From contig NC_014148.1 of assembly GCF_000092105.1 (NCBI RefSeq), positions 4,110,001 to 4,142,000 on the forward strand: a DNA stretch of 32,000 bases. The letters run 5' to 3'. This document shows, piece by piece, positions 4,193 through 29,612 of the stretch (its first letter is position 1; every line of letters begins with the position of its first letter). The position numbers were made by a program, and so were the translations under genes. The notes below the pieces were generated by a model, which worked only from the letters and a program-made list of their open reading frames with translations, searched no databases and was not told where the DNA came from. This DNA comes from Planctopirus limnophila DSM 3776. GTDB lineage: Bacteria; Planctomycetota; Planctomycetia; Planctomycetales; Planctomycetaceae.

Positions 4193-5275
4193 ATGTGGTG
4201 CCCTCAGTGCCAAGCCGATGTTGCTGCTGTGTTGATGCCGGATCACCGGCATTCACGATGCACGCATTGCGGAATGACATTGGCCGCCCGGCTCTCGACA
4301 CCCACGATACCGCAGGATCAAGAAACTAATCCGCCAGGAACTTTGCCTGCACCAGCGAGCTTAAATCTTCTTCGAGACGAAACATCAACGCGTAATGTGC
4401 GCGACGTTCTGGCCCGCTGGTCGACGCCACAGGCTTTGGAATCCCTGGATCGTCCCTTTCTCCCGGATCTCTCTGCCAGCCCATTACGAACCAGCAAGAC
4501 GCCAGCACCTCATTCCATCACTCGCGAACCTGCCGCTGAGCCGCCTACGAAGACTTCCACCGCTGCATCGAACTTCCCAAATAACGATGCTCCAACTCCT
4601 CCTTATGCGGCAGAGACGCTTCCCGTTCATCCGCAGGCTGCTCGCCGGGTTGATCTTTCGCATGGTGAGGGAGCACCACCCAAGCCGAAACATCGCCCCA
4701 AACGGCGAACCGACACGAAGGCGGTTCAGCGTCGCTTTGATCAACAGCAGTCGCGAATGGCCGGAAGAGGTCCGCATTTTGATGTGCGACTTCTGAGGGA
4801 ACTTGAGCAGGGACAGTACTCTTCCCACGCTATGCACGCATCGCCCACTCAGGCTCATCTACAGAAAGAATTGGCCAGTCTGCAACAAGCGAAAACCGAA
4901 AAGCCATTTAACTGGGGAATTGTCTCTGGTCAGGTCTGTGCCTATCTGGGTGTGGCCTTACTGACCTGTGGAACGTCGCTTGTGCTTTGGAGTCATTTTG
5001 GTGGCCCCGTCGAGCATGCACCGACTGGCTGGCTCATGACCACAGCAGGCCAGATGCTGCTCTTTCTGGGGGTTGTGACATTAGTTTCCTCCGGGATGGA
5101 ACAGACGACAGACGAAGTGGCCACGCGCATTCAGACACTGGGCGAAAAGATCCTGCGACTGGAAATCGCACAGAGAGAGTCGCATCTGCAGGCTCCTCAT
5201 TATGCCGGCAGTCGGCTGCGTACGAAGACCAAGTCGAGTGCTGGGCGGCCTGTTCGCCGCCGCGAAGAAGAGTAA
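4193..5275 (+). CDS. Hypothetical membrane protein with N-terminal zinc-ribbon
   Basis: The 360-aa ORF starts with ATG. Its N-terminus has CPQC-x17-CTHC, followed by a long Pro/Thr/Ala-rich region. Two hydrophobic helices (FNWGIVSGQVCAYLGVALLTCGTSLVLW, GWLMTTAGQMLLFLGVVTLVSSG) and a charged C-terminal helix follow. I recognise no family. Confidence 0.6.
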   Translation: MWCPQCQADVAAVLMPDHRHSRCTHCGMTLAARLSTPTIPQDQETNPPGTLPAPASLNLLRDETSTRNVRDVLARWSTPQALESLDRPFLPDLSASPLRTSKTPAPHSITREPAAEPPTKTSTAASNFPNNDAPTPPYAAETLPVHPQAARRVDLSHGEGAPPKPKHRPKRRTDTKAVQRRFDQQQSRMAGRGPHFDVRLLRELEQGQYSSHAMHASPTQAHLQKELASLQQAKTEKPFNWGIVSGQVCAYLGVALLTCGTSLVLWSHFGGPVEHAPTGWLMTTAGQMLLFLGVVTLVSSGMEQTTDEVATRIQTLGEKILRLEIAQRESHLQAPHYAGSRLRTKTKSSAGRPVRRREEE

Positions 5276-5374
5276 AGCTCGTATTTCAGATCCTCAATTA
5301 TCTATAAATATTATAACAGACTCTGCGTATATGCGTCTGGAGTTCACCTGTGATCAGGGTGAAACAGGAACAAC

Positions 5375-6112
5375 ATGATGAAAACTCAGACGATATTAAA
5401 CTGGGCTATCTGCTGCGGTCTGGTTGTAACCCCACTGGCTTGCACATCGACCAAGACGACAAATACGTCCCGTACGGCACGTGAGCAGTTACTGATTTCC
5501 AACGCAATTGATCATGCTCTCGAAAAGGTCGATTTGTCGACAATTCAAGGAGCGAACCTCTATATCGAGGAAAAATATCTCGAAGGGGTCGATAAAGCCT
5601 ACCTCGTCGGTTCGCTACGTCATCGCGCCATGCTGGCTGGGGCGAATATCGTCGCGAAAGCTGAAGACGCTGATATTGTCCTCGAACTGCGGTCGGGTTC
5701 TATCGGTACTGATTCGGCAGACTCATTTATCGGTTCACCCGAGATTACACTCCCTGGGATGCTGACACTTCCTGAAGTGCGACTTGTCAGCCGGTCACGT
5801 CAAACCGCGACCGCGAAACTGGGGTTACTGGCTTACGATCCCAAAAGTAAGCAGCTTCTGGGCCAGGGTGGGGTTTCATCAGCACAATCGGATGATAACA
5901 ACATCTTCGTTTTCGGTGTCGGGCCTTATCATTACGGTACCGTCAAAGAGGAAGTGGAGCGAACCGCCACACCACCTGCCACAACCGCTCAACAACTCCC
6001 CTCGCAAGTCGCTTTTCGTGGAACACGGCCCATGGGTTCGGCCATTGCCCGGGAGGTTAATGAGGAAGGCTCAGTTCAACTCACCGGCGACCAGCGACCG
6101 GCCGATGAATAG
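5375..6112 (+). CDS. Hypothetical lipoprotein
   Basis: The 245-aa ORF has a signal peptide with a lipobox-like VVTPLAC|TS. Coding-like composition runs throughout. I recognise no family. Confidence 0.65.
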   Translation: MMKTQTILNWAICCGLVVTPLACTSTKTTNTSRTAREQLLISNAIDHALEKVDLSTIQGANLYIEEKYLEGVDKAYLVGSLRHRAMLAGANIVAKAEDADIVLELRSGSIGTDSADSFIGSPEITLPGMLTLPEVRLVSRSRQTATAKLGLLAYDPKSKQLLGQGGVSSAQSDDNNIFVFGVGPYHYGTVKEEVERTATPPATTAQQLPSQVAFRGTRPMGSAIAREVNEEGSVQLTGDQRPADE

Positions 6113-6174
6113 TTAGTGGCATTCGTCTCGCAGGGTGAATACAAATGTACCAATGAGATATTTAGCGAGTCTCT

Positions 6175-6202
6175 GGTGCATTCCGTCGGAACTTCATGCA
6201 CC
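6175..6202. repeat. Copy 2 of the ~30-nt hairpin motif
   Basis: The string is ctGGTGCATtccgtcggaacttcATGCACCctac, with a 7-bp stem GGTGCAT/ATGCACC. It lies in a convergent intergenic region about 40 nt past the stop of the minus-strand gene 6244-6918. Confidence 0.6.
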
Positions 6203-6243
6203 CTACATTAGATGCACTTGATATAATCAACTCTCAGCGATGT

Positions 6244-6918
6244 TCAATACGAGCTACTCAGGCTGTCTTTGAACCAGTTCTCAAACTGTGTTGGCCACAT
6301 CGTCGTTGGCCGACCGAATTGATAAAAACTGACCTTGCTATTGGGTTGGATCACCAGCGACATCCTGCGTCCCTGGATCTTCAAACTCACGATCCTGGTG
6401 CGAGGTAACCACAAGGCTGTCGGACGTTCCATCCAGCGGGTGGCAAGCTCGATCGGTGTGATGGTTCCTGGAAGAGTTATCGATGCACTCTTTTCAGGAG
6501 AAGAGTCGAGCGTTTGTGGCGGCAGATCATTCGTAAACGATGTTTGACCTGCAGGATGAAACGCTTGTTCTGGTGATTTTCGCTGTGGTAAAGAACCCGG
6601 TTGCCGCCAGCAGAAACCAAGACTCCACCAGGTTCGATGCGACGCTGTTTTGAAACTGATTTTATGCGTCTCAAGCCATTCAATTTCGGGAAGCCAGGCC
6701 AAACCAATCGATGTCAGAATCAATGACCCATGGACCAACGACTGCCTGCGTTGAATAGCGATCGATGGTTGTTCGAGTAGTACGGCACCAAATCGGTCAG
6801 CAAGCTCACTGGTTGTCAGGTCAGGTTCAGAGAGATTCAATACGCTTGTACAGAAGGGACACCGTCCATATTGAGGTGACTCCCAGTTCAGACATTGGCG
6901 GCAAAGCATCAGCGTCAC
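6244..6918 (-). CDS. Hypothetical protein with N-terminal zinc-ribbon
   Basis: The 224-aa ORF has CRQC-x11-CPFC at the N-terminus. The rest is not recognisable by eye. Confidence 0.55.
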   Translation of the reverse strand: MTLMLCRQCLNWESPQYGRCPFCTSVLNLSEPDLTTSELADRFGAVLLEQPSIAIQRRQSLVHGSLILTSIGLAWLPEIEWLETHKISFKTASHRTWWSLGFCWRQPGSLPQRKSPEQAFHPAGQTSFTNDLPPQTLDSSPEKSASITLPGTITPIELATRWMERPTALWLPRTRIVSLKIQGRRMSLVIQPNSKVSFYQFGRPTTMWPTQFENWFKDSLSSSY

Positions 6919-21165: not shown

Positions 21166-22107
21166 TCATTCTCCGTGAACCTCCCCTTCATTCCAAGTGG
21201 CCAGGAGCGGCAGGATTTCGGCGGATTCGTATGCCATGAACCGCACACTGCCGTCGCAGAATAGAAAATTTCCTCCCCCGGCATGCAGGCTCCAGAAGTG
21301 GAGGGCATCGCAATATTCGTCCAACTTGCCGGGTGCGAAAGGGTAGAGCCGATCTTCGCATTGTCCGATGGATACGAATTTATTGTGAGGAACCTGAGCC
21401 ACACGCTCTCTTACGCCCAGCAGCATATCGGCACTGCCACTCCCCTCCTGCCCTGCTCCGGTATACCACCAGCCAAAATTGTGATCAGGGCTCGGCGGAC
21501 GCTCCCCCACACACAAGGTCTGGCTTGTGCCATCGGTGATCTCCGCCAGTCGAATGCGCTTGCCATAGACAAGTGCGCCGGTTGAACTTCGATAATCAAC
21601 ACCTGAGACCCCCAGGTAACTGGTCATCCCCACCAGCGCTCCATTGAGTGTTGGTGCGTTTCGGGGGCGCGAGGCTCTTTCATCAAGCGGACAGACGTAA
21701 GCGGCCATCGTCTTCGCAAATGGATAATGGGGTGGATTCAGGTACGGTGTGTTATAGATCCGGTAAGCACGCTGAGATTCCTGCCATGGGAATGTCTGCT
21801 CAAGATGAGGCAGAATGGGAACCATCCACGACATTTCCAGGTGTTTCGGATCGGTCGAAGAATCCGATTTTCCTGCGGGAAAAAAGCCCTGAGCCGCCTC
21901 GAACGTGTGGAGTGCCACACCGATCTGTTTCAACTGGTTCTGGCACTGCAGCCTGGCTGCTGCCATTCTTGCCCACTGAACTGCTGGCAAAGTGATCGCT
22001 AGAAGGATTGCGATCACCCCGATGGCCACCAGCAATTCAATCATCGTGAAGCCTCTGGCGGCTAAACACTCGCACGACGGCGTGCGATCAAAGCGACGGC
22101 AGCGCAT
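21166..22107 (-). CDS. DUF1559 / H-X9-DG pseudopilin-like protein with prepilin-type N-terminal cleavage/methylation signal (paralog 1)
   Basis: It has the G|FTMIELLVAIGVIAILLAITLPAVQ class III signal, an LQCQNQLKQIGVALHTF block and a C-terminal HAGGGNFLFCDG (H-X9-DG). I prefer the ATG at 22107, which overlaps the upstream gene's end by 46 nt. Confidence 0.85.
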   Translation of the reverse strand: MRCRRFDRTPSCECLAARGFTMIELLVAIGVIAILLAITLPAVQWARMAAARLQCQNQLKQIGVALHTFEAAQGFFPAGKSDSSTDPKHLEMSWMVPILPHLEQTFPWQESQRAYRIYNTPYLNPPHYPFAKTMAAYVCPLDERASRPRNAPTLNGALVGMTSYLGVSGVDYRSSTGALVYGKRIRLAEITDGTSQTLCVGERPPSPDHNFGWWYTGAGQEGSGSADMLLGVRERVAQVPHNKFVSIGQCEDRLYPFAPGKLDEYCDALHFWSLHAGGGNFLFCDGSVRFMAYESAEILPLLATWNEGEVHGE

Positions 22108-23075
22108 AGCAATACCCCTCCGCAAACAAGCCACCACCAGCCCCAGCCTGTTTGAACTCCTTCAGGCTCGGGTAATCCATAATAAGTCAAATAGGCCTCT
22201 TTCCGATCCAAAGGTACTTCCCACTGCGAATAGTCAAATTCATCTCGCTGACTCGCAGGCTTCGCATTCCCCTTGTCATCAATTAAGAACACTTCAACCA
22301 CAGAAGGTAATGCCATACCTTGCACAGTCTGCCATCCCGAAAATCGAACTCCGTTGCACACTGGAATGCTTTTATCCGGCTCATGCACCTGATAGCACGA
22401 TTCATAGCGCACAGGAAAATCGTTGTACTGAGGTGCGTAGTAGATTTTGACCCTTGAAGGATTGTCAGAACTATAGATACGGCGAGAGAGCACCTCCTCC
22501 CTTGACAACGTTTTCAACTCAAATTCAATAAACTTAACCTCGGCACCCTCAATTATTGCACTTCCCTGATCAATAACCCGAGAAAAGTTCTGGCTAAGCT
22601 TATCCGACTTATTAGCTAACCATTTGAGAGTTCTCCATTGCAGTCGATCAGACTCATCAAGAGGGGACAACCCTCCACGGTCTGTAGAAAGGACGAGCGA
22701 TTTCAACACCCAGGGGTCATTGGAGTAACGCTCCAGTCGCGCCTGATAACCAGGATTAGAAATCATCATATAATGATGATTTTCACTGCTGCCTGGCAGA
22801 ACCGACTCAACAAAAAAATACTGACCGTCTCTCTTAATAGAGACTTTTCCGGGCTTTGTTTCGAGAACCTTGCCGGTTTCACGATCGATCTCCGGACTCG
22901 TGATATTTACAGAATAGCGATCCCCTGCCGAATACGAAGCCCATTTCTGCAGGAGACCGGAAAGCAAAGGATCGTGCGGCTTGCTCTGCGCTGAAACTAC
23001 AGCAGGTACTGCTGAAAAAGCTGCGAAGAACATAACCGTTATCATACATGCCGTTTTTGTTGGGTAAATCAACAA
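22062..23075 (-). CDS. Secreted protein with conserved PEP-CTERM-like C-terminal tail (tail-anchored paralog 1)
   Basis: It has an N-terminal signal peptide (...FAAFSAVPAVVSA|QS). The C-terminus is YLTYYGLPEPEGVQTGWGWWWLVCGGVLLCAAVALIARRRASV. It is paralogous to 24255-25280, 25403-26435 and 27045-28064. The start is a TTG at 23075 or an ATG at 23045. Confidence 0.7.
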   Translation of the reverse strand: MLIYPTKTACMITVMFFAAFSAVPAVVSAQSKPHDPLLSGLLQKWASYSAGDRYSVNITSPEIDRETGKVLETKPGKVSIKRDGQYFFVESVLPGSSENHHYMMISNPGYQARLERYSNDPWVLKSLVLSTDRGGLSPLDESDRLQWRTLKWLANKSDKLSQNFSRVIDQGSAIIEGAEVKFIEFELKTLSREEVLSRRIYSSDNPSRVKIYYAPQYNDFPVRYESCYQVHEPDKSIPVCNGVRFSGWQTVQGMALPSVVEVFLIDDKGNAKPASQRDEFDYSQWEVPLDRKEAYLTYYGLPEPEGVQTGWGWWWLVCGGVLLCAAVALIARRRASV

Positions 23076-23277: not shown

Positions 23278-24258
23278 TTACTCCACGCGATTCTCCCCTT
23301 CATTTCTGGAGGCGAGGAGCGGCAGGATTTCGGCGGATTCATACGCCATGAACCGCACACTGCCATCGCAGAATAGAAAATTTCCTCCGCCGGCATGCAG
23401 GCTCCAGAAGTGGAGGGAATCGCAAAGCTCGTCGAGTCGGCCCGGTGCAAAGGGATATGGTTTGTCCGGGCAATGACCATCGGTAATAAATTTGTTGTGC
23501 GGCGTCTGGGCCACTCGCTCTTCAACTCCCAGCAGCATGTCGGCTGAACCACTCCCCTCCTGACCAACTCCCGTATACCACCAGCCAAAATTGTGATCAG
23601 GACTCGGCGGACGCTCGCCCACGCATAACGTCTGGCTCGTGCCGCGGGTCATATCAGAAAACCGAATCACTTGATCAAAGATCAGCACACCGTCCGAGGT
23701 CATGTGGTTTCTTCCCATGACTCCCAGGTAGCTCGTCAGGGCGACGAAACCTCCGTCAAGAGTTGAGGCACTGCGAATTTTTGACGCTCGCTCGTCGAGT
23801 GGACAGACATACGCCGGCACGACCTGGGCAAACGGATAATGGGGCGGGTTGGAGTAGGGGCTGGCTTTCATTTGATAAGCGGCTTGAGACTCATGCCAGA
23901 GAGTGGCCTGTTCGAGATGGGGCAGAATGGGAATCATCCAGGACATGGAATGCTGTTTGGGATTGGTTTTTAAGCCGGTCTTGCCCACAGGCAACTGGCT
24001 ATGTGACGCTTCGAACGTGTGGAGTGCCAGACCAATCTGCTTGAGCTTGTTCTGACATTCCAGACGTTTGGCGGCATGGCGTGACCACTGAACAGCGGGA
24101 ATCGTAATGGCGACCAGGAGGCCAATGACTCCCATCGCCACAAGCAGTTCGATCAATGTGAAGCCGCTCTTTGCGGCTTTGCTTTGCTGGAAAATGAAGT
24201 CCGCTAAAACGCTTGACAGCGAGCGGCAAGACACGGATCTGCGCAGTTCTGCGTTCAT
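23278..24258 (-). CDS. DUF1559 / H-X9-DG pseudopilin-like protein with prepilin-type signal (paralog 2)
   Basis: It has G|FTLIELLVAMGVIGLLVAITIPAVQ, LECQNKLKQIGLALHTF and HAGGGNFLFCDG. Its ATG (24256-24258) overlaps the stop of the upstream gene as ATGA. Confidence 0.85.
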   Translation of the reverse strand: MNAELRRSVSCRSLSSVLADFIFQQSKAAKSGFTLIELLVAMGVIGLLVAITIPAVQWSRHAAKRLECQNKLKQIGLALHTFEASHSQLPVGKTGLKTNPKQHSMSWMIPILPHLEQATLWHESQAAYQMKASPYSNPPHYPFAQVVPAYVCPLDERASKIRSASTLDGGFVALTSYLGVMGRNHMTSDGVLIFDQVIRFSDMTRGTSQTLCVGERPPSPDHNFGWWYTGVGQEGSGSADMLLGVEERVAQTPHNKFITDGHCPDKPYPFAPGRLDELCDSLHFWSLHAGGGNFLFCDGSVRFMAYESAEILPLLASRNEGENRVE

Positions 24259-25280
24259 GTGTGCCGCCTAACGGCGATGACCCAAACCGCGAAGCATGCC
24301 AGTCCTCCCGTAACCAGTAACCACCACCAGCCCCATCCCTTGGACACACCCTCCGGTTCTGGCAAGCCGTAATACGTTAAATACGTCTGTTCTTCGGGGA
24401 AGGGAGCGTCCCAGTTCGAGTGGTCGAACGTGAGAGTCTGCATCGGCGGTCCGTCGAGGGGTGAAATCCACAACTGCCAAATCTCAGCCTTCAAGGGAAT
24501 GTTCAAACCATCGAGTTCACTCCATTCGCTATACGCATGGGCGATCGGACGATGATACGACTTCCCATTAGAACTGAAATTCAAATCGAAGTCGATACGG
24601 ACAGGTGCTCCATCGACCTTGGAGGAGAGATAGAATTTGGCTTTAGGAGTATAGTTGACTGGTAGTAACGCCTTTTTGCGCTCTTCAGGCACATCGGGAA
24701 AGGTTGCTTCGAGCACCCGAACCTCTTCACCCCGCCATGTTTCTCGCGGCAGTTCCTTCAACAGGACACCGGGTTCGCCGAGTCGGTCGCGGAGGATGAC
24801 GGCTTGGCCTAAGTGCGGCAACTCGTTGAAATCATGTTCCCGACTCAGGTCGGGTGGAAGATTCGACCCCAGTCCCAGCTTTTTCAAGACCCAGCGATCA
24901 TTGTTCACCCGTCTCAATAAGGCCCCGTAATGGGAGTTGCGGATCAACAAGTTTGTTAGAGTTGTTTTTGGTCCTGTAGGGAAAGGATCCTCCATAATGT
25001 GATAGCTCGCCGCTTTCTTCAAATGGCTTATGGTGGAAGCAAATTGCATATCACCTGGATTCTCAGGGTTTACACGGGTTGATAGTGTCAACGAATACTG
25101 GAACTTATCCGGCAAGCCCGGAATCTTCCACCAGTTCAGAAGTTCAGCAGGCGTCCATTGCTGATGAGTAGGATTGGATTGCTGGTCAGCCGCCTCGCAG
25201 GCGGGAGCAAAGCCCATGAAGGTCGATACTGCGGAGCAAATCGCCGATAGGAGCAAGAGGCCAAGAAGATACTTGATCAT
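24255..25280 (-). CDS. Secreted protein with PEP-CTERM-like C-terminal tail (tail-anchored paralog 2)
   Basis: From the ATG at 25280 the protein reads MIKYLLGLLLLSAICSAVSTF... (signal peptide). The C-terminus is YLTYYGLPEPEGVSKGWGWWWLLVTGGLACFAVWVIAVRRHT. The longer ORF-track form (to 25562) overlaps the 3' end of paralog 3. An in-frame ATG at 25406 forms an ATGA overlap with the paralog 3 stop. Confidence 0.7.
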   Translation of the reverse strand: MIKYLLGLLLLSAICSAVSTFMGFAPACEAADQQSNPTHQQWTPAELLNWWKIPGLPDKFQYSLTLSTRVNPENPGDMQFASTISHLKKAASYHIMEDPFPTGPKTTLTNLLIRNSHYGALLRRVNNDRWVLKKLGLGSNLPPDLSREHDFNELPHLGQAVILRDRLGEPGVLLKELPRETWRGEEVRVLEATFPDVPEERKKALLPVNYTPKAKFYLSSKVDGAPVRIDFDLNFSSNGKSYHRPIAHAYSEWSELDGLNIPLKAEIWQLWISPLDGPPMQTLTFDHSNWDAPFPEEQTYLTYYGLPEPEGVSKGWGWWWLLVTGGLACFAVWVIAVRRHT

Positions 25281-25402
25281 AACCACATCCTGAGGATCAT
25301 CCTGCGTGCTGACGCCATCGGAAAGTCGCATGCAGGTGATTTTACATAACGTGTCGCAATCACTCCGCGTTTCATGTGCTTCGGATGGTCTGCGGAGCGA
25401 TA

Positions 25403-26435
25403 TCATGAAGACCTCCGGCGGATTAGAATCGTCATCGCGACTACCAGCAGCCCTCCCGCAAGTAGCAACCACCACCAGCCCCATCCCTTGGAGACACCTT
25501 CCGGTTCGGGAAGGCCGTAATAGGTCAGATAGGCCTGTTCCTTCGGAAACGGCGAGTCCCATTCCGAGTAATCAAAATCGGCGCTCCAGTGCGGCTTTCC
25601 CTGGGGCTCGAACGTGTCGCTGTACCAGCCTTCTTGTCGTCGGGGAAGGTGGAATCCACCGTGAGTGACCCAGTCGGTGTATCGGACTGTGGAATTCCTT
25701 GTTTTCGCTCCGGGCGAGTCGCCAAGTAAAAAAGTCTGGTCGAGACGTTGTATCGCATTCCCCAATCCTCTCCCGGAAAAAACGCGGGCCCAGACAATGT
25801 GAGGAATATACCGCGAAGTCTCTTGACGCGTGCCGGACCGAGGCGGAATGGTGACTTCAAACATCTTCGGTTGGACGCCGTCGGCAGTCCCTTCGTGATA
25901 ATCGTCTATACGGAGGCCGCCCTCCTCAAACCGTTCCTTCAGTCCAAGACCGACATGAGTGGGAAAATGAAACGATTCCCACCGTGCATCGATCAGCGTG
26001 TCGTAAGCTTTCTGATGCCGAAGTGCCAGAGAATTGAGCACCCACTTTTTCACCTGGGATTCGCAGCAATTTGGCGGCGTAGTCGGGATTGACAATCTCG
26101 ATGGCCTCCATCGCCCCTTCCGTATCCAGCGGGCGATAGTCGTGGATCCAGTGTCCTCCGTCCGATCGCACCGTTGATACATATCTCTTGAATACTTCTG
26201 TTGGAAGCTGATTCTTGAACTGGGATTGGGTTGATGCGATCTTCATTTGAAAAGATTCGGGGCGATCATCGTTCGACCACCGCCGAAGAAGCTCGTCCAA
26301 ACGTCGGCTTGCCACCACATCGTCGCCTGCACGACACTGCACATGTCGGCACGGCACGGCACTGAAGAGTAACCATGCCAACATGAGACGTATTGCAAAA
26401 CGGTGGTGGTTCGGTCGCTGTGGCCATAAGGACAT
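25403..26435 (-). pseudogene. Tail-anchored paralog 3, interrupted by a 1-nt frameshift at an A5 run
   Basis: ORF 25926-26435 supplies the signal peptide through ...IVNPDYAAKLLRIPGEK. ORF 25403-26182 supplies ...WVLNSLAL... through YLTYYGLPEPEGVSKGWGWWWLLLAGGLLVVAMTILIRRRSS. Together they reconstitute a 343-aa homolog if one A is removed from GGTGAAAAAGTGG (plus-strand T5 at 26046-26050). Confidence 0.65.
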
Positions 26436-26559: not shown

Positions 26560-26862
26560 TCAACCGGCATGGCAATAGCAATTGATACTGTCGGTTGGGG
26601 AATCCCGACACTCGCAGAAGGCCGCGCCTCCAATGGGGTTTCCACAGATTGACCGGTCGTTTCCGCACGTTCGAGGTCCTCCGTTTACTGATCGACGATC
26701 TTTGCAGGCGTCGGAAGTTCCGCTACAGTTAATGTGGTAGGTTGCTCCATCTCCCGTTTCTTCGCCATCCTCCGGGGTATTGTCATCGGCCCAAACGCTG
26801 GTGATGAAGGCGGCGGTCGAGAGGCAAAAGCAGGCGAAACCGAGGGTCAAAAATCTTCGCAT
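26560..26862 (-). CDS. Small secreted 8-cysteine protein (P1)
   Basis: The 100-aa ORF starts at ATG 26862, preceded by AGGAAA. It has a signal peptide MRRFLTLGFACFCLSTAAFITSVWA|DD, an acidic spacer, then the Cys pattern C-x6-C-x12-C-x6-C-x9-C-x-C-x9-C-x-C. It is paralogous to 28197-28510. Confidence 0.6.
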   Translation of the reverse strand: MRRFLTLGFACFCLSTAAFITSVWADDNTPEDGEETGDGATYHINCSGTSDACKDRRSVNGGPRTCGNDRSICGNPIGGAAFCECRDSPTDSINCYCHAG

Positions 26863-26952
26863 GGCAAGTTTCCTAGTTGAGTGACAAAATCTTCGTTCAG
26901 AGACAATCCCTTCAGCGGATGGCCAACCTCGACACAGAGGGGGCGGTGGGAG

Positions 26953-27048
26953 AGACCGCTGGACAGCGGGAATCGTGATGGCGATCAGCAGGCCAATGAC
27001 TCCCATCGCAACAAGCAGTTCGATCAATGTGTAGCCGGGGCGATTCAT
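26953..27048 (-). pseudogene. DUF1559 gene stub (only leader plus pilin-like helix retained)
   Basis: MNRPGYTLIELLVAMGVIGLLIAITIPAVQRS is near-identical at the DNA level to the 5' end of 23278-24258. Similarity stops abruptly near 26950. Its ATG overlaps the paralog 4 stop as ATGA, and the reading frame runs on without a stop into P1. Confidence 0.6.
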
Positions 27049-28064
27049 ACCGAGACTCTTTTCCAGCCCAGCCAGATAGCGATAACGAAACATCCTGCGA
27101 CCGCCCACCACCACCAGCTCATGCGTCGTGAGATCCCCTCCGGTTCTGGCAAGCCGTAATAAGTTAAATACGCCTGTTCCTTGGGGAAGGGTGCGTCCCA
27201 GTTGCCAACGTTTAATTCTGCTGTCTCGCTGGGAACGTCTTTGATGGCAATTCTCCACAATTGCCATGCCTCAAATCTCAACGGAATTGTTAAATCGCCG
27301 ACCTTACTCCACTGACTATACGCAAAAGAAAGGGGTCTTACATATTCTTTTCCGTCGAGTGTATATTTCAATTCAAAATCCATTCGCGCAGGGCCAGACG
27401 GTTCTGACTTCCTGAAATACAGTCGTGCCGATGGAGGAAAGTCGATCGGCCCCTTGCCTATCCTTTGCTCTTCTGAAGCTTCGGGCAAAGCGACATCCAG
27501 CACATCTACATCTTCGCCATTCCAGTTCTCCGTCCACGTTTTTGTGATGGAAACACCAGGTTCTTTCAGACGATTGCGAATACCTACATTTGTACCAGAA
27601 TGCTGAGAGAGCATCGCTTTGGGGTTGACCGTCAGTTCCGGCGGATGATTTCGCCCTGGCGACAGCCTTTTGACGACCCAGCGACCATTATCGATTTTTT
27701 GCAGCATAGCGGCATACTCTGGATTACAGATCACGAGCCTGGTTATTGTACTAGTTGCACCAGTAGGCGAGGGAGACTCACAGACATAATACCCTGGTTG
27801 GAACTTGTAACGCCCGATGGTGGTAGCGACTCGCTGATCCTGCGGATTCTCCGGATCCAGACGAATGGTGCGTTTCACCTCAAGCTGGAAACGATCCGGA
27901 AGTTCCGGAAGCTTCCAGCGATCCTCAATTATTGCTGGAGCCCACTTTCCAGAATTTATGGATTCGCCGGGCGCCGCCACTCCGACAGCGAAAAACTGGA
28001 AAAACAAAAAAGTCCAAAGCACTTGTCGTAGTCTCAATCGAATTCCGACAGACAACCTGGACAT
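27045..28064 (-). CDS. Secreted protein with PEP-CTERM-like C-terminal tail (tail-anchored paralog 4)
   Basis: The 339-aa ORF starts with ATG and has a signal peptide (...FFQFFAVGVAAPG). The C-terminus is YLTYYGLPEPEGISRRMSWWWWAVAGCFVIAIWLGWKRVSV. It shares internal blocks with paralog 2, for example WKLPELPDRFQ versus WKIPGLPDKFQ, and NPEYAAMLQKIDNGRWVVKRL versus NSHYGALLRRVNNDRWVLKKL. Confidence 0.7.
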   Translation of the reverse strand: MSRLSVGIRLRLRQVLWTFLFFQFFAVGVAAPGESINSGKWAPAIIEDRWKLPELPDRFQLEVKRTIRLDPENPQDQRVATTIGRYKFQPGYYVCESPSPTGATSTITRLVICNPEYAAMLQKIDNGRWVVKRLSPGRNHPPELTVNPKAMLSQHSGTNVGIRNRLKEPGVSITKTWTENWNGEDVDVLDVALPEASEEQRIGKGPIDFPPSARLYFRKSEPSGPARMDFELKYTLDGKEYVRPLSFAYSQWSKVGDLTIPLRFEAWQLWRIAIKDVPSETAELNVGNWDAPFPKEQAYLTYYGLPEPEGISRRMSWWWWAVAGCFVIAIWLGWKRVSV

Positions 28065-28196: not shown

Positions 28197-28510
28197 CTAA
28201 CTCGCCCGGCAATAGCATAACGTGGCGTTTTCTGGCGAAGTCGGAAGAACGGCGCAGTCGCAATCTGTTCGGGGAGGAATGGCGGCTCCACAAATATTAG
28301 GATCACCCACATGACAACTATTGTTCATCCCACTGAAGGGGAAACCCCTTTGATTACAATGATATGAAGGGTTTTTACATGAAGGATTATCATAAGTCGT
28401 TGGATCATCGCCAGGTTCTTCGTTCACAGGATCATCGGCGGAGACGCTCGCAATCAGTGCGATCGCACAGACACAGAGATAAATCCAGATAGTGAGAAGA
28501 GTCTTTTCAT
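28197..28510 (-). pseudogene. Small secreted 8-cysteine protein (P2), start separated from body by an apparent 1-nt frameshift
   Basis: The body frame (GTG ORF 28197-28427) extends upstream without a stop as ...TLLTIWIYLCVCAIALIASVSA|DDPVNEEP, a good signal peptide. The only ATG (28508-28510, preceded by AGGAAA) is one frame off. One extra A in ATGAAAAGACT would give MKKTLLTIW.... The Cys pattern matches P1. Confidence 0.55.
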
Positions 28511-28547: not shown

Positions 28548-29612
28548 CTAGCGAACAGGATCACCTGTCAGCTTCTCTACACTGGCCTCATTCAACTTCT
28601 CGGCAATGGTCGCATGTGGTGGCGAGTCTCGAACCACCGAAAAAGAAAGCCGCTCCTGGCGCAGGCGCTGTTGATGGAGCTTTGTCGTGTTGACCGTTTC
28701 AGTCGCGGGCTGTGCCTCGGCGAAGGGACTTTGAATCGGGCCGGGAGACTTGACCGCATTCAGCTCGTTGAACGAAGAAGAGTTGACGAGTTCTGCTCCA
28801 TTGTGAGACTCATCGCCAACAAATAACGCCAGAGAGCCATCGCCCCGCTGGGCATGCGGAAAAAGTTTTAACTTCATTTCCAGGAAAATGGTCTCCTGGG
28901 CGGGAATGACGAGCGGAATCGGTGTCACGAGAATGATGCCGCAAACAGATTCTTTACCGACGATCGCCACAGGTGTGCTGCGCACATTGCGGACAGGGAT
29001 GCGGGCCTCGACCCATTCCACCGAGGGTTCAATCGGCGTGGCGGGGATGGGGTGATGACTGCTGGTAAGTGCCTGTGCTGAGATCGCATGCGGCCAACTG
29101 ATCGATAACGCCAGCACCATGGCAAGAACCATCAGCGTGACCATGAGGAGCGATTCTCCCGCTGCTCGGGCCACCGGTCGTAACAGGCTTCCCGTGTGAG
29201 GCCTCGAAACGATGGCACACAGATAGGAGACCGCAATGATGCTGACATCGAGAATCACGATACTCCACGGGCGAAAGCTCAGTTTTCCGAAGCAGCCGCA
29301 GGTCGTTTCCCCCGCGAGAGCTGCCGAGAGTGCAAAAACTGCCAGGATCGTCATCAGGAGTGCCGCCAGGATCCAGACCTCGCGGGATCGAAAGTTGGTC
29401 AGAACCAGAGTGGCGACAAAGACGAGGATTGAGACCGAAAAGAGCTCAAAAGCGGTCGTACTCGAGGCTGGCTCGAAATAGAGCAGATCGTGCAGTGACT
29501 GATACGATTTCAAAGCGGCTGAGAGTATCAGCAGACCGCTGATCAGCACGGAGGCCAGCTTGGGAATAACGCCGAGTTCGGGCCAGAAGGCAGACGCTGC
29601 GCGCAGATCCAT
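28548..29612 (-). CDS. MauE/DoxX-like polytopic membrane protein (CGCFG motif) fused to a DUF1573-like C-terminal domain
   Basis: The 354-aa ORF starts with ATG. By eye it has about five hydrophobic helices, with CGCFG (29286-29300) just after helix 3, as I recall for MauE/DoxX redox-associated membrane proteins. The C-terminal ~150 aa have a beta-rich pattern (VEARIPVRNVRSTPVAIVGKESVCGIILVTPIPLVIPAQETIFLEMKLKL) resembling DUF1573. Confidence 0.65.
   Translation of the reverse strand: MDLRAASAFWPELGVIPKLASVLISGLLILSAALKSYQSLHDLLYFEPASSTTAFELFSVSILVFVATLVLTNFRSREVWILAALLMTILAVFALSAALAGETTCGCFGKLSFRPWSIVILDVSIIAVSYLCAIVSRPHTGSLLRPVARAAGESLLMVTLMVLAMVLALSISWPHAISAQALTSSHHPIPATPIEPSVEWVEARIPVRNVRSTPVAIVGKESVCGIILVTPIPLVIPAQETIFLEMKLKLFPHAQRGDGSLALFVGDESHNGAELVNSSSFNELNAVKSPGPIQSPFAEAQPATETVNTTKLHQQRLRQERLSFSVVRDSPPHATIAEKLNEASVEKLTGDPVR

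Follow-up and report, generated by a model that had tools for sequence, protein, structure and literature searches.

A near-invariant YGLPEP tail is the signature of one Planctomycetota protein family with a predicted LolA-fold body and lies outside PEP-CTERM

Four paralogs (par1 to par4) encoded in a 32,000-nucleotide stretch of the Planctopirus limnophila DSM 3776 chromosome (NC_014148.1, positions 4,110,001 to 4,142,000; hereafter the window) end in nearly the same C-terminal tail. Is this tail a PEP-CTERM/exosortase sorting signal, as a first-pass annotation proposed for 24255-24395 (the final 46 codons of par2 and its stop codon), or does it belong to something else? We found that the tail is a real and strongly selected feature which has the layout of a sorting signal and is not a member of PEP-CTERM. 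It is the signature of one uncharacterised, unannotated family of Planctomycetota with a predicted LolA-fold body.

When the open reading frames (ORFs) of the window were re-checked, the four tails and their ORFs were exactly as first described. The bodies of the proteins are diverged, with 22-29% identity between par1 and the others and 40% between par2 and par4, whereas 12 consecutive residues of the tail (YLTYYGLPEPEG) and a WWW are invariant across all four. After YLTYYGLPEPEG each paralog has a transmembrane helix rich in Trp and then a basic cluster. The layout of Pro-Glu-Pro, spacer, one transmembrane helix and basic C-terminus is thus real, and it is seen family-wide together with an N-terminal signal peptide, recognised as hydrophobic leaders by inspection and modelled as an N-terminal helix by AlphaFold2.

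How widely is the tail distributed? The first-pass annotation had suggested a profile search for further carriers. An exhaustive HMMER search of 1.84 billion representatives (E<=1e-3) with the tail-family profile matched at least 206 clusters at 50% identity, nearly all of 290-390 aa; a word-indexed search returned relatives of the Planctopirus type only. From these we assembled a sample of 153 proteins, comprising the 150 listed by the profile search and P0002, P0004 and P0006 from the word-indexed search. PEP was found within the last 75 aa in 141 of the 153 representatives, and most of the others were single-residue variants. The tail consensus is E-[FC]-[YRT]-L-[ST]-[HYA]-[YF]-G-L-P-E-P, and L-[ST]-x-[YF]-G-L-P-E-P is the family signature, referred to below as the YGLPEP motif.

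Sequence logos located the conservation within the tail. The L, G, P, E and P of the motif reach 3.5-4.2 bits, and in anchored logos the median distance from PEP to the C-terminus is 40 aa. Counting backwards from PEP, the register stays fixed to about -22 and no low-complexity linker intervenes, and the motif abuts the folded domain. Between motif and helix lies a spacer of 4-11 residues, often charged; the uncharged stretch that comes next has a median length of 20 aa and a W-rich start, with R/K afterwards in 136 of 149 sequences. A conserved helix-packing motif was sought in the transmembrane segment, and weak Gly/Ala enrichment was all that was found, so that the helix appears generic. 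We also considered a disulfide between the motif Cys at -8, present in 43 of 135 members, and a body Cys 19 residues before NPxY, and rejected it (5/43 versus 8/92, p=0.75). In the par2 ortholog of P. hydrillae (L001 5099-6406), and in that ortholog alone, the near-invariant Gly of the motif is substituted (YLTYYRLPEPEG).

A sorting signal of the PEP-CTERM kind is expected to be modular, and the tail studied here is not. After the tails had been removed, 150 of the 153 carriers were homologous to one another by iterated hidden Markov model search on the collected proteins, and the three exceptions were fragments of 131-177 aa. The tail therefore belongs to one family. Among 241 million metagenome records we counted 65 occurrences of [YFW]L[ST][HY]YGLPE, and 23 of these were confirmed relatives. 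The metagenome locus scan was run with a 29-sequence subset, as the 135-sequence alignment was too diverse for it. Neither the four paralogs nor the 135 members matched any Pfam or NCBIfam family. A tail-only search of a 5.8-billion-protein database gave no match and was uninformative, since it also missed the family's own members. No tail-less homolog was found either, in a body-only search of the same database that was itself insensitive, recovering two proteins.

The relation to PEP-CTERM could be examined directly. PEP-CTERM has been defined (PMC1569441, Haft 2006) as a module of 24 aa in which PEP sits at the periplasm-membrane interface and is accompanied by a hydrophobic stretch of 14 residues and by a basic cluster; it occurs on many unrelated proteins per genome, is co-distributed with the EpsH exosortase and has been noted in the planctomycete Rhodopirellula baltica. 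When the four tails alone were searched at E<=10 against NCBIfam and Pfam, they matched neither TIGR02595, nor PF07589, nor the PEP-CTERM subfamily models. The best score from any sorting model was 18 bits, below the cutoff of 20, for MYXO-CTERM on par3 only. Among the 135 members no curated C-terminal sorting-domain model matched at E<=0.01, one chance LPXTG match excepted, and three more family tails and a spacer-deleted hybrid gave no score on TIGR02595. By comparison, two consensus-like PEP-CTERM control peptides, written after the general consensus, scored 35.6-36.1 bits on this model, for which the cutoff is 16.

The tails do resemble PEP-CTERM in their near-invariant Pro-Glu-Pro near the C-terminus, their C-terminal basic cluster and the N-terminal signal peptide of the proteins that carry them. 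They depart from it in model score, in the placement of PEP at the membrane interface within a region of ~24 aa, and in modularity on unrelated proteins. The YLTYYGL and GWGWWW blocks had correctly been set outside the canonical signature, and Pfam/NCBIfam scans of the window ORFs bore out the statement that no exosortase-like gene is present in the window. Nor did an exosortase recur within 6 kb in 29 related loci (67 neighbours; best 25 of 68 matched families). As a weak further indication, the terms 'exosortase' and 'EpsH' are absent among the P. limnophila gene-table entries listed, and in the literature and its supplements mentions of an exosortase in Planctopirus are limited to reference lists.

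We give next to no credence to the idea that an ordinary exosortase handles the tail as a canonical PEP-CTERM signal. The proteins do have the PEP tripeptide, the transmembrane helix, the basic cluster and the signal peptide, but no model matched either the four tails or the 135 members at the thresholds above, at which controls reached about 36 bits, and spacing, length and modularity are all off the definition. At the level of model membership this explanation was rejected. The broader proposal of the first-pass annotation, a PEP-CTERM/exosortase-type signal, is not supported: in addition to the missing model match and the wrong spacing, the tail sits on one body, its motif is predicted to be ordered (see below) and no exosortase recurs nearby among the best 25 of 68 matched families. 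The same annotation had allowed that existing models might score the tail as ordinary PEP-CTERM; this was checked, with no score. These results call for caution, as a PEP tripeptide, a helix and basic residues alone do not justify calling a sorting signal.

Is it the peptide or the DNA that is conserved? The tail had been described as conserved even at the DNA level. This is right in so far as the motif shares 26-34 of 36 nt in pairs of paralogs, and wrong as to what is selected: 2-10 of the 12 motif codons differ between paralog pairs, all of them synonymously, with zero amino-acid replacements. Differences that are only synonymous point to purifying selection on the peptide, not to DNA identity, and the TGG run is invariant because Trp has a single codon.

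It is highly improbable, in our judgement, that the tail is conserved as a side effect of exchange between the tandem paralogs, by gene conversion or by unequal recombination, or that its conservation reflects a DNA-level signal for the downstream gene. Such exchange does occur in the family. In a Planctomyces metagenome-assembled genome (locus L002), adjacent paralogs at 4886-5908 and 5905-6909 agree almost codon for codon over their last ~55 codons, and the agreement stops sharply upstream, a sign of gene conversion. In P0002 a body of the par4 type is combined with a helix of the par3 type, as unequal recombination at repeated tail DNA would produce. The overlap of the final par1 codons with the leader of a DUF1559 gene would be compatible with a DNA-level signal. 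However, the motif codons of the window differ synonymously without a single replacement, and the motif is kept across the clusters (at least 206) from different families of Planctomycetota. Gene conversion accounts for local homogenisation of the helix in some genomes, not for the motif, and as the cause of motif conservation in the window it was rejected, because synonymous-site identity across the paralogs is absent.

To what kind of body does the tail belong? AlphaFold2 modelled par2 with a predicted local distance difference test score (pLDDT) of 78.8 from 10 sequences, and with a pLDDT of 87.9 and a predicted template modelling score of 0.78 from the 135-sequence alignment. The model consists of an N-terminal leader helix, an all-beta body and a C-terminal helix at residues 317-339 (pLDDT ~95). 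The motif lies in the ordered part, with a pLDDT of 96-97, and two short helices are modelled there (295-298 and 300-303). For the spacer the pLDDT is 79. When both models were compared with the PDB by Foldseek, the LolA superfamily came out on top (E 3e-9 to 1e-3, probability 1.0), with matches to LolA3 (9tp6, E 1e-8), NE2245 (3buu), 3bk5, the DUF1329 protein 4z48, LprG and RseB, at modest template modelling scores of 0.43-0.48 normalised to the target. The body is accordingly predicted to be an open beta half-barrel of the LolA superfamily.

Genes of this family keep recurrent company. The 29 related loci from genomes and metagenomes added 44 ORFs or fragments of the family, which often lie in tandem. 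A Cys-rich ORF lay directly upstream of 14 of the 28 family genes that had enough upstream sequence, and a MauE/DUF1573 gene lay at most three genes upstream in 12 of 28. A DUF1559 gene was found directly downstream of 9 of 20 family genes and within three genes of 16 of 20. The remaining neighbours within 6 kb (n=67) contained no recurrent family among the best 25 of 68 matched families. The recurring cassette is composed of a MauE/DUF1573 membrane protein, a Cys-rich peptide, the LolA-fold tail protein and a DUF1559 pseudopilin.

With a probability of roughly 60%, we favour the reading that the tail is a retained inner-membrane anchor whose YGLPEP motif caps the LolA-fold domain and docks a conserved partner from the cassette. 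Topology, tail retention and partner docking are what we infer here. An N-terminal Sec signal peptide would export the protein, and the LolA-superfamily half-barrel would fold in the periplasm. The single C-terminal helix of ~20 residues, with its Trp-rich start on the periplasmic side, would tether the domain to the cytoplasmic membrane, and the Arg/Lys cluster would stay cytoplasmic as a stop-transfer signal. The L-[ST]-x-[YF]-G-L-P-E-P motif would then be the final ordered periplasmic element, 4-11 residues above the membrane. It would serve as a docking site for the partner and also as a rigid cap or hinge, not as a cleavage site. Tethered in this way, the protein would most probably work with the MauE/DUF1573 protein, the small disulfide-rich secreted peptide and the coupled DUF1559 prepilin-type protein. 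A carrier or chaperone role is conceivable, with either the Cys-rich peptide or the hydrophobic N-terminus of the pseudopilin as its client.

Several points weigh against this reading. Cleaved sorting signals are conserved in exactly this way, with a near-invariant short motif ahead of a generic helix and a basic cluster, and a purely structural cap would not obviously need an invariant G-L-P-E-P across bodies that are 15-20% identical. Retention of the tail is something that we infer, and the proposed partner and ligand are speculative. That the motif packs against the body is suggested by pLDDT values.

The first of these points leads to another explanation, namely that the tail is a new sorting or processing signal dedicated to one family, in which a membrane enzyme recognises YGLPEP and cuts there, so that the LolA-like domain is transferred or released. 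Candidates for this enzyme would be an exosortase encoded elsewhere and a membrane protein encoded in the cassette, such as the MauE-like one with its conserved Cys. We regard such a signal as unlikely, although there is evidence in its favour. The tripartite architecture and the N-terminal signal peptide are family-wide, no other part of the protein comes near the motif in conservation, the helix is generic, and upstream there is a recurrent multi-pass membrane protein whose GCFG cysteine is conserved. Furthermore, the conservation of such tails has been argued to imply a protein partner, and PEP-CTERM proteins are found in R. baltica (PMC1569441). Against it stand the lack of a match to any curated sorting-domain model when the controls match, the position of PEP off the membrane interface, the ordered motif of the AlphaFold2 model and the single cargo family. 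No sortase, exosortase or rhomboid was recurrent within 6 kb in the 29 loci (best 25 of 68 matched families). MauE is not known to have peptidase or transpeptidase activity, which we count against it as the processing enzyme.

A sorting enzyme with a single target tends to adjoin that target, a rule for dedicated systems (PMC3237569). With the recurrent neighbours listed above, the rule leaves no sortase-class candidate. The specific form in which YGLPEP-CTERM is an unrecognised dedicated Planctomycetota signal, cleaved or transferred at G-L-P-E-P by an unlinked exosortase-type enzyme or by the MauE-like protein or the Lnt-like acyltransferase of the cassette (the last with a catalytic cysteine), seems to us distinctly doubtful. 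If it were true, YGLPEP-CTERM would couple a LolA-like domain to the export or assembly of DUF1559 pseudopilins and a Cys-rich peptide.

The setting of the four paralogs in the window is summarised in Table 1. The array is flanked by pyrH-tsf-rpsB, which correspond to Plim_3192-3194, and by hemC (Plim_3202). The par2 product is 100% identical to Plim_3198; par4 is probably Plim_3200, an assignment made from gene order and from the Plim_3198/3200 paralog pair in a transposon sequencing supplement. On the minus strand the order of genes is MauE-like, Cys-rich gene #1, par4, DUF1559 remnant/Cys-rich gene #2, par3, par2, DUF1559, par1 and DUF1559, and the remaining ORFs of the window are housekeeping genes. 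Relative to the intact P. hydrillae ortholog (L001:4227-5258, 343 aa), par3 is frameshifted near 26046-26050, so that it is either a pseudogene or the product of a sequencing error; it has no downstream DUF1559 gene.

Table 1. Features of the paralog array and of related loci. Positions are those of the window unless a locus is named.
Feature	Position	Strand	Details
par1 CDS (coding sequence)	22062-23075	minus	tail 22062-22193, motif YLTYYGLPEPEG 22158-22193
par2 CDS	24255-25280 from MIKYLL start	minus	annotated start 25406 (Plim_3198, 24255-25406)
par2 tail	24255-24383	minus	motif YLTYYGLPEPEG 24348-24383, spacer VSKG, Trp-rich transmembrane helix, RRHT, stop
par3	25403-26435	minus	two reading frames; tail intact, motif YLTYYGLPEPEG 25496-25531
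par4 CDS	27045-28064	minus	tail 27045-27170, motif YLTYYGLPEPEG 27135-27170
DUF1559 / H-X9-DG prepilin-type gene	23278-24258	minus	PF07596 1.2e-37, N_methyl, TIGR04294
DUF1559 / H-X9-DG prepilin-type gene downstream of par1	21166-22137	minus	PF07596 4.5e-36, TIGR04294
DUF1559 5' remnant (N_methyl leader) and in-frame Cys-rich gene #2	26560-27114	minus	Cys-rich gene #2 MRRFLTLGF...CYCHAG, ~26560-26862
Cys-rich peptide gene #1	28197-~28520	minus	ends CYCRAS; signal-peptide-like N-terminus
Cassette-head membrane protein	28548-29612	minus	N-terminal MauE-like domain, CGCFG motif; PF07291
Lnt-like genes	L018 1462-3117; L003 11468-12274; L024 3961-4485; L017 1347-1880		
Cys-rich peptide sites beyond the window	L004 8900-9253, 10405-10782, 12968-13309; L005 1108-1380; L009, L024, L029		

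Two of the paralogs run into the DUF1559 genes that follow them. The stop codon of par2 overlaps the start of its downstream DUF1559 gene as ATGA, and at 22062-22137 the end of par1 (~15-25 codons) shares its DNA, read in another frame, with the leader-coding start of the DUF1559 gene that follows. These overlaps suggest translational coupling, for par2 with the gene at 23278-24258 in particular. The neighbouring DUF1559 proteins score 38-39 bits on TIGR04294 and carry the prepilin N-terminal methylation motif. Proteins of this type form the largest paralog family of P. limnophila, with 68 copies and no known function (PMC10632474). The remnant between par4 and par3 keeps the prepilin leader and the N-terminal helix only. 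P. hydrillae is arranged alike, and the deletion therefore predates the split of the two species.

The cassette-head protein matches PF07291 at 27.0 bits, exactly the cutoff of 27, and relatives score 28.4 and 34.4 bits. Its C-terminal half, an immunoglobulin-like DUF1573 domain with an SCGC motif, aligns with the single-helix DUF1573 proteins of other loci. Planctopirus thus has a fusion of the two parts, whereas other lineages have them as separate genes or have a single-helix DUF1573 protein alone (L010 7256-8795, L029, L024, L027).

The secreted Cys-rich peptides encoded directly upstream of the LolA-like genes, in the window at 26560-26862 and 28197-28427, have 76-139 aa and 8-16 Cys, several end in C-x-C, and they had no Pfam or NCBIfam match. 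Like the LolA-like bodies they vary greatly, which suggests co-evolving pairs. In Cys-rich gene #1 an in-frame leader (…IYLCVCAIALIASVSADDP) has no ATG, GTG or TTG start, whereas in P. hydrillae the orthologous peptide begins MKRLFSLSAI. Loss of the start codon or use of a rare one would account for the missing start. At four loci a gene for an Lnt-like apolipoprotein N-acyltransferase (LNT_N and CN_hydrolase) lies directly downstream of the LolA-like gene, between it and DUF1559. This position circumstantially links the cassette to lipid or lipoprotein chemistry and is at most a hint that the LolA-like domain might bind acyl chains or lipoproteins.

Collectively, these data newly define an unannotated partner family of DUF1559, with a predicted LolA-fold body and an invariant YGLPEP tail in at least 206 clusters, and the four-gene cassette to which it belongs. 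Family and cassette together provide a genetically testable handle on the role of some DUF1559 proteins.

How does the family compare with known systems? Like PEP-CTERM proteins, its members combine a signal peptide, Pro-Glu-Pro, one hydrophobic helix and terminal Arg/Lys, and have expanded as paralogs within a genome. In PEP-CTERM, however, PEP lies at the interface, whereas here it stands 4-11 residues from the helix; the 24-aa module with its 14-aa hydrophobic stretch contrasts with a tail of ~40 aa and a stretch of ~20 aa. Unlike that of PEP-CTERM, the motif extends upstream (L-S/T-x-Y/F-G-L), and in place of a modular signal it is found on one body family and is predicted to be structured.

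With the dedicated systems, rhombosortase/GlyGly-CTERM and the Gram-negative sortase with LPXTG (PMC3237569), the family shares a single target family, a C-terminal motif, helix and basic tail, and a conserved cassette. Those systems encode the enzyme beside its target, whereas the neighbours found here (MauE/DUF1573, Cys-rich, DUF1559 and sometimes Lnt-like) include no known sorting enzyme.

In the methylamine dehydrogenase (mau) cluster, MauE is encoded with MauA, the Cys-rich small subunit. The cassette likewise places a MauE-like membrane protein beside a small secreted Cys-rich polypeptide, but the match to MauE does no more than reach the cutoff of the Pfam model, and the cassette has no MauD, MauA or dehydrogenase genes. 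Finally, the family shares with the LolA superfamily (LolA/LolB, LprG/LppX, RseB, DUF1329 and 'outer membrane lipoprotein-sorting protein' domains) the predicted open beta half-barrel with helices, although neither the four paralogs nor the 135 members match any LolA/LolB/RseB-type model of Pfam or NCBIfam by sequence. Proteins of the LolA superfamily are soluble or N-terminally lipidated, whereas those of the tail family would be anchored by a C-terminal transmembrane helix.

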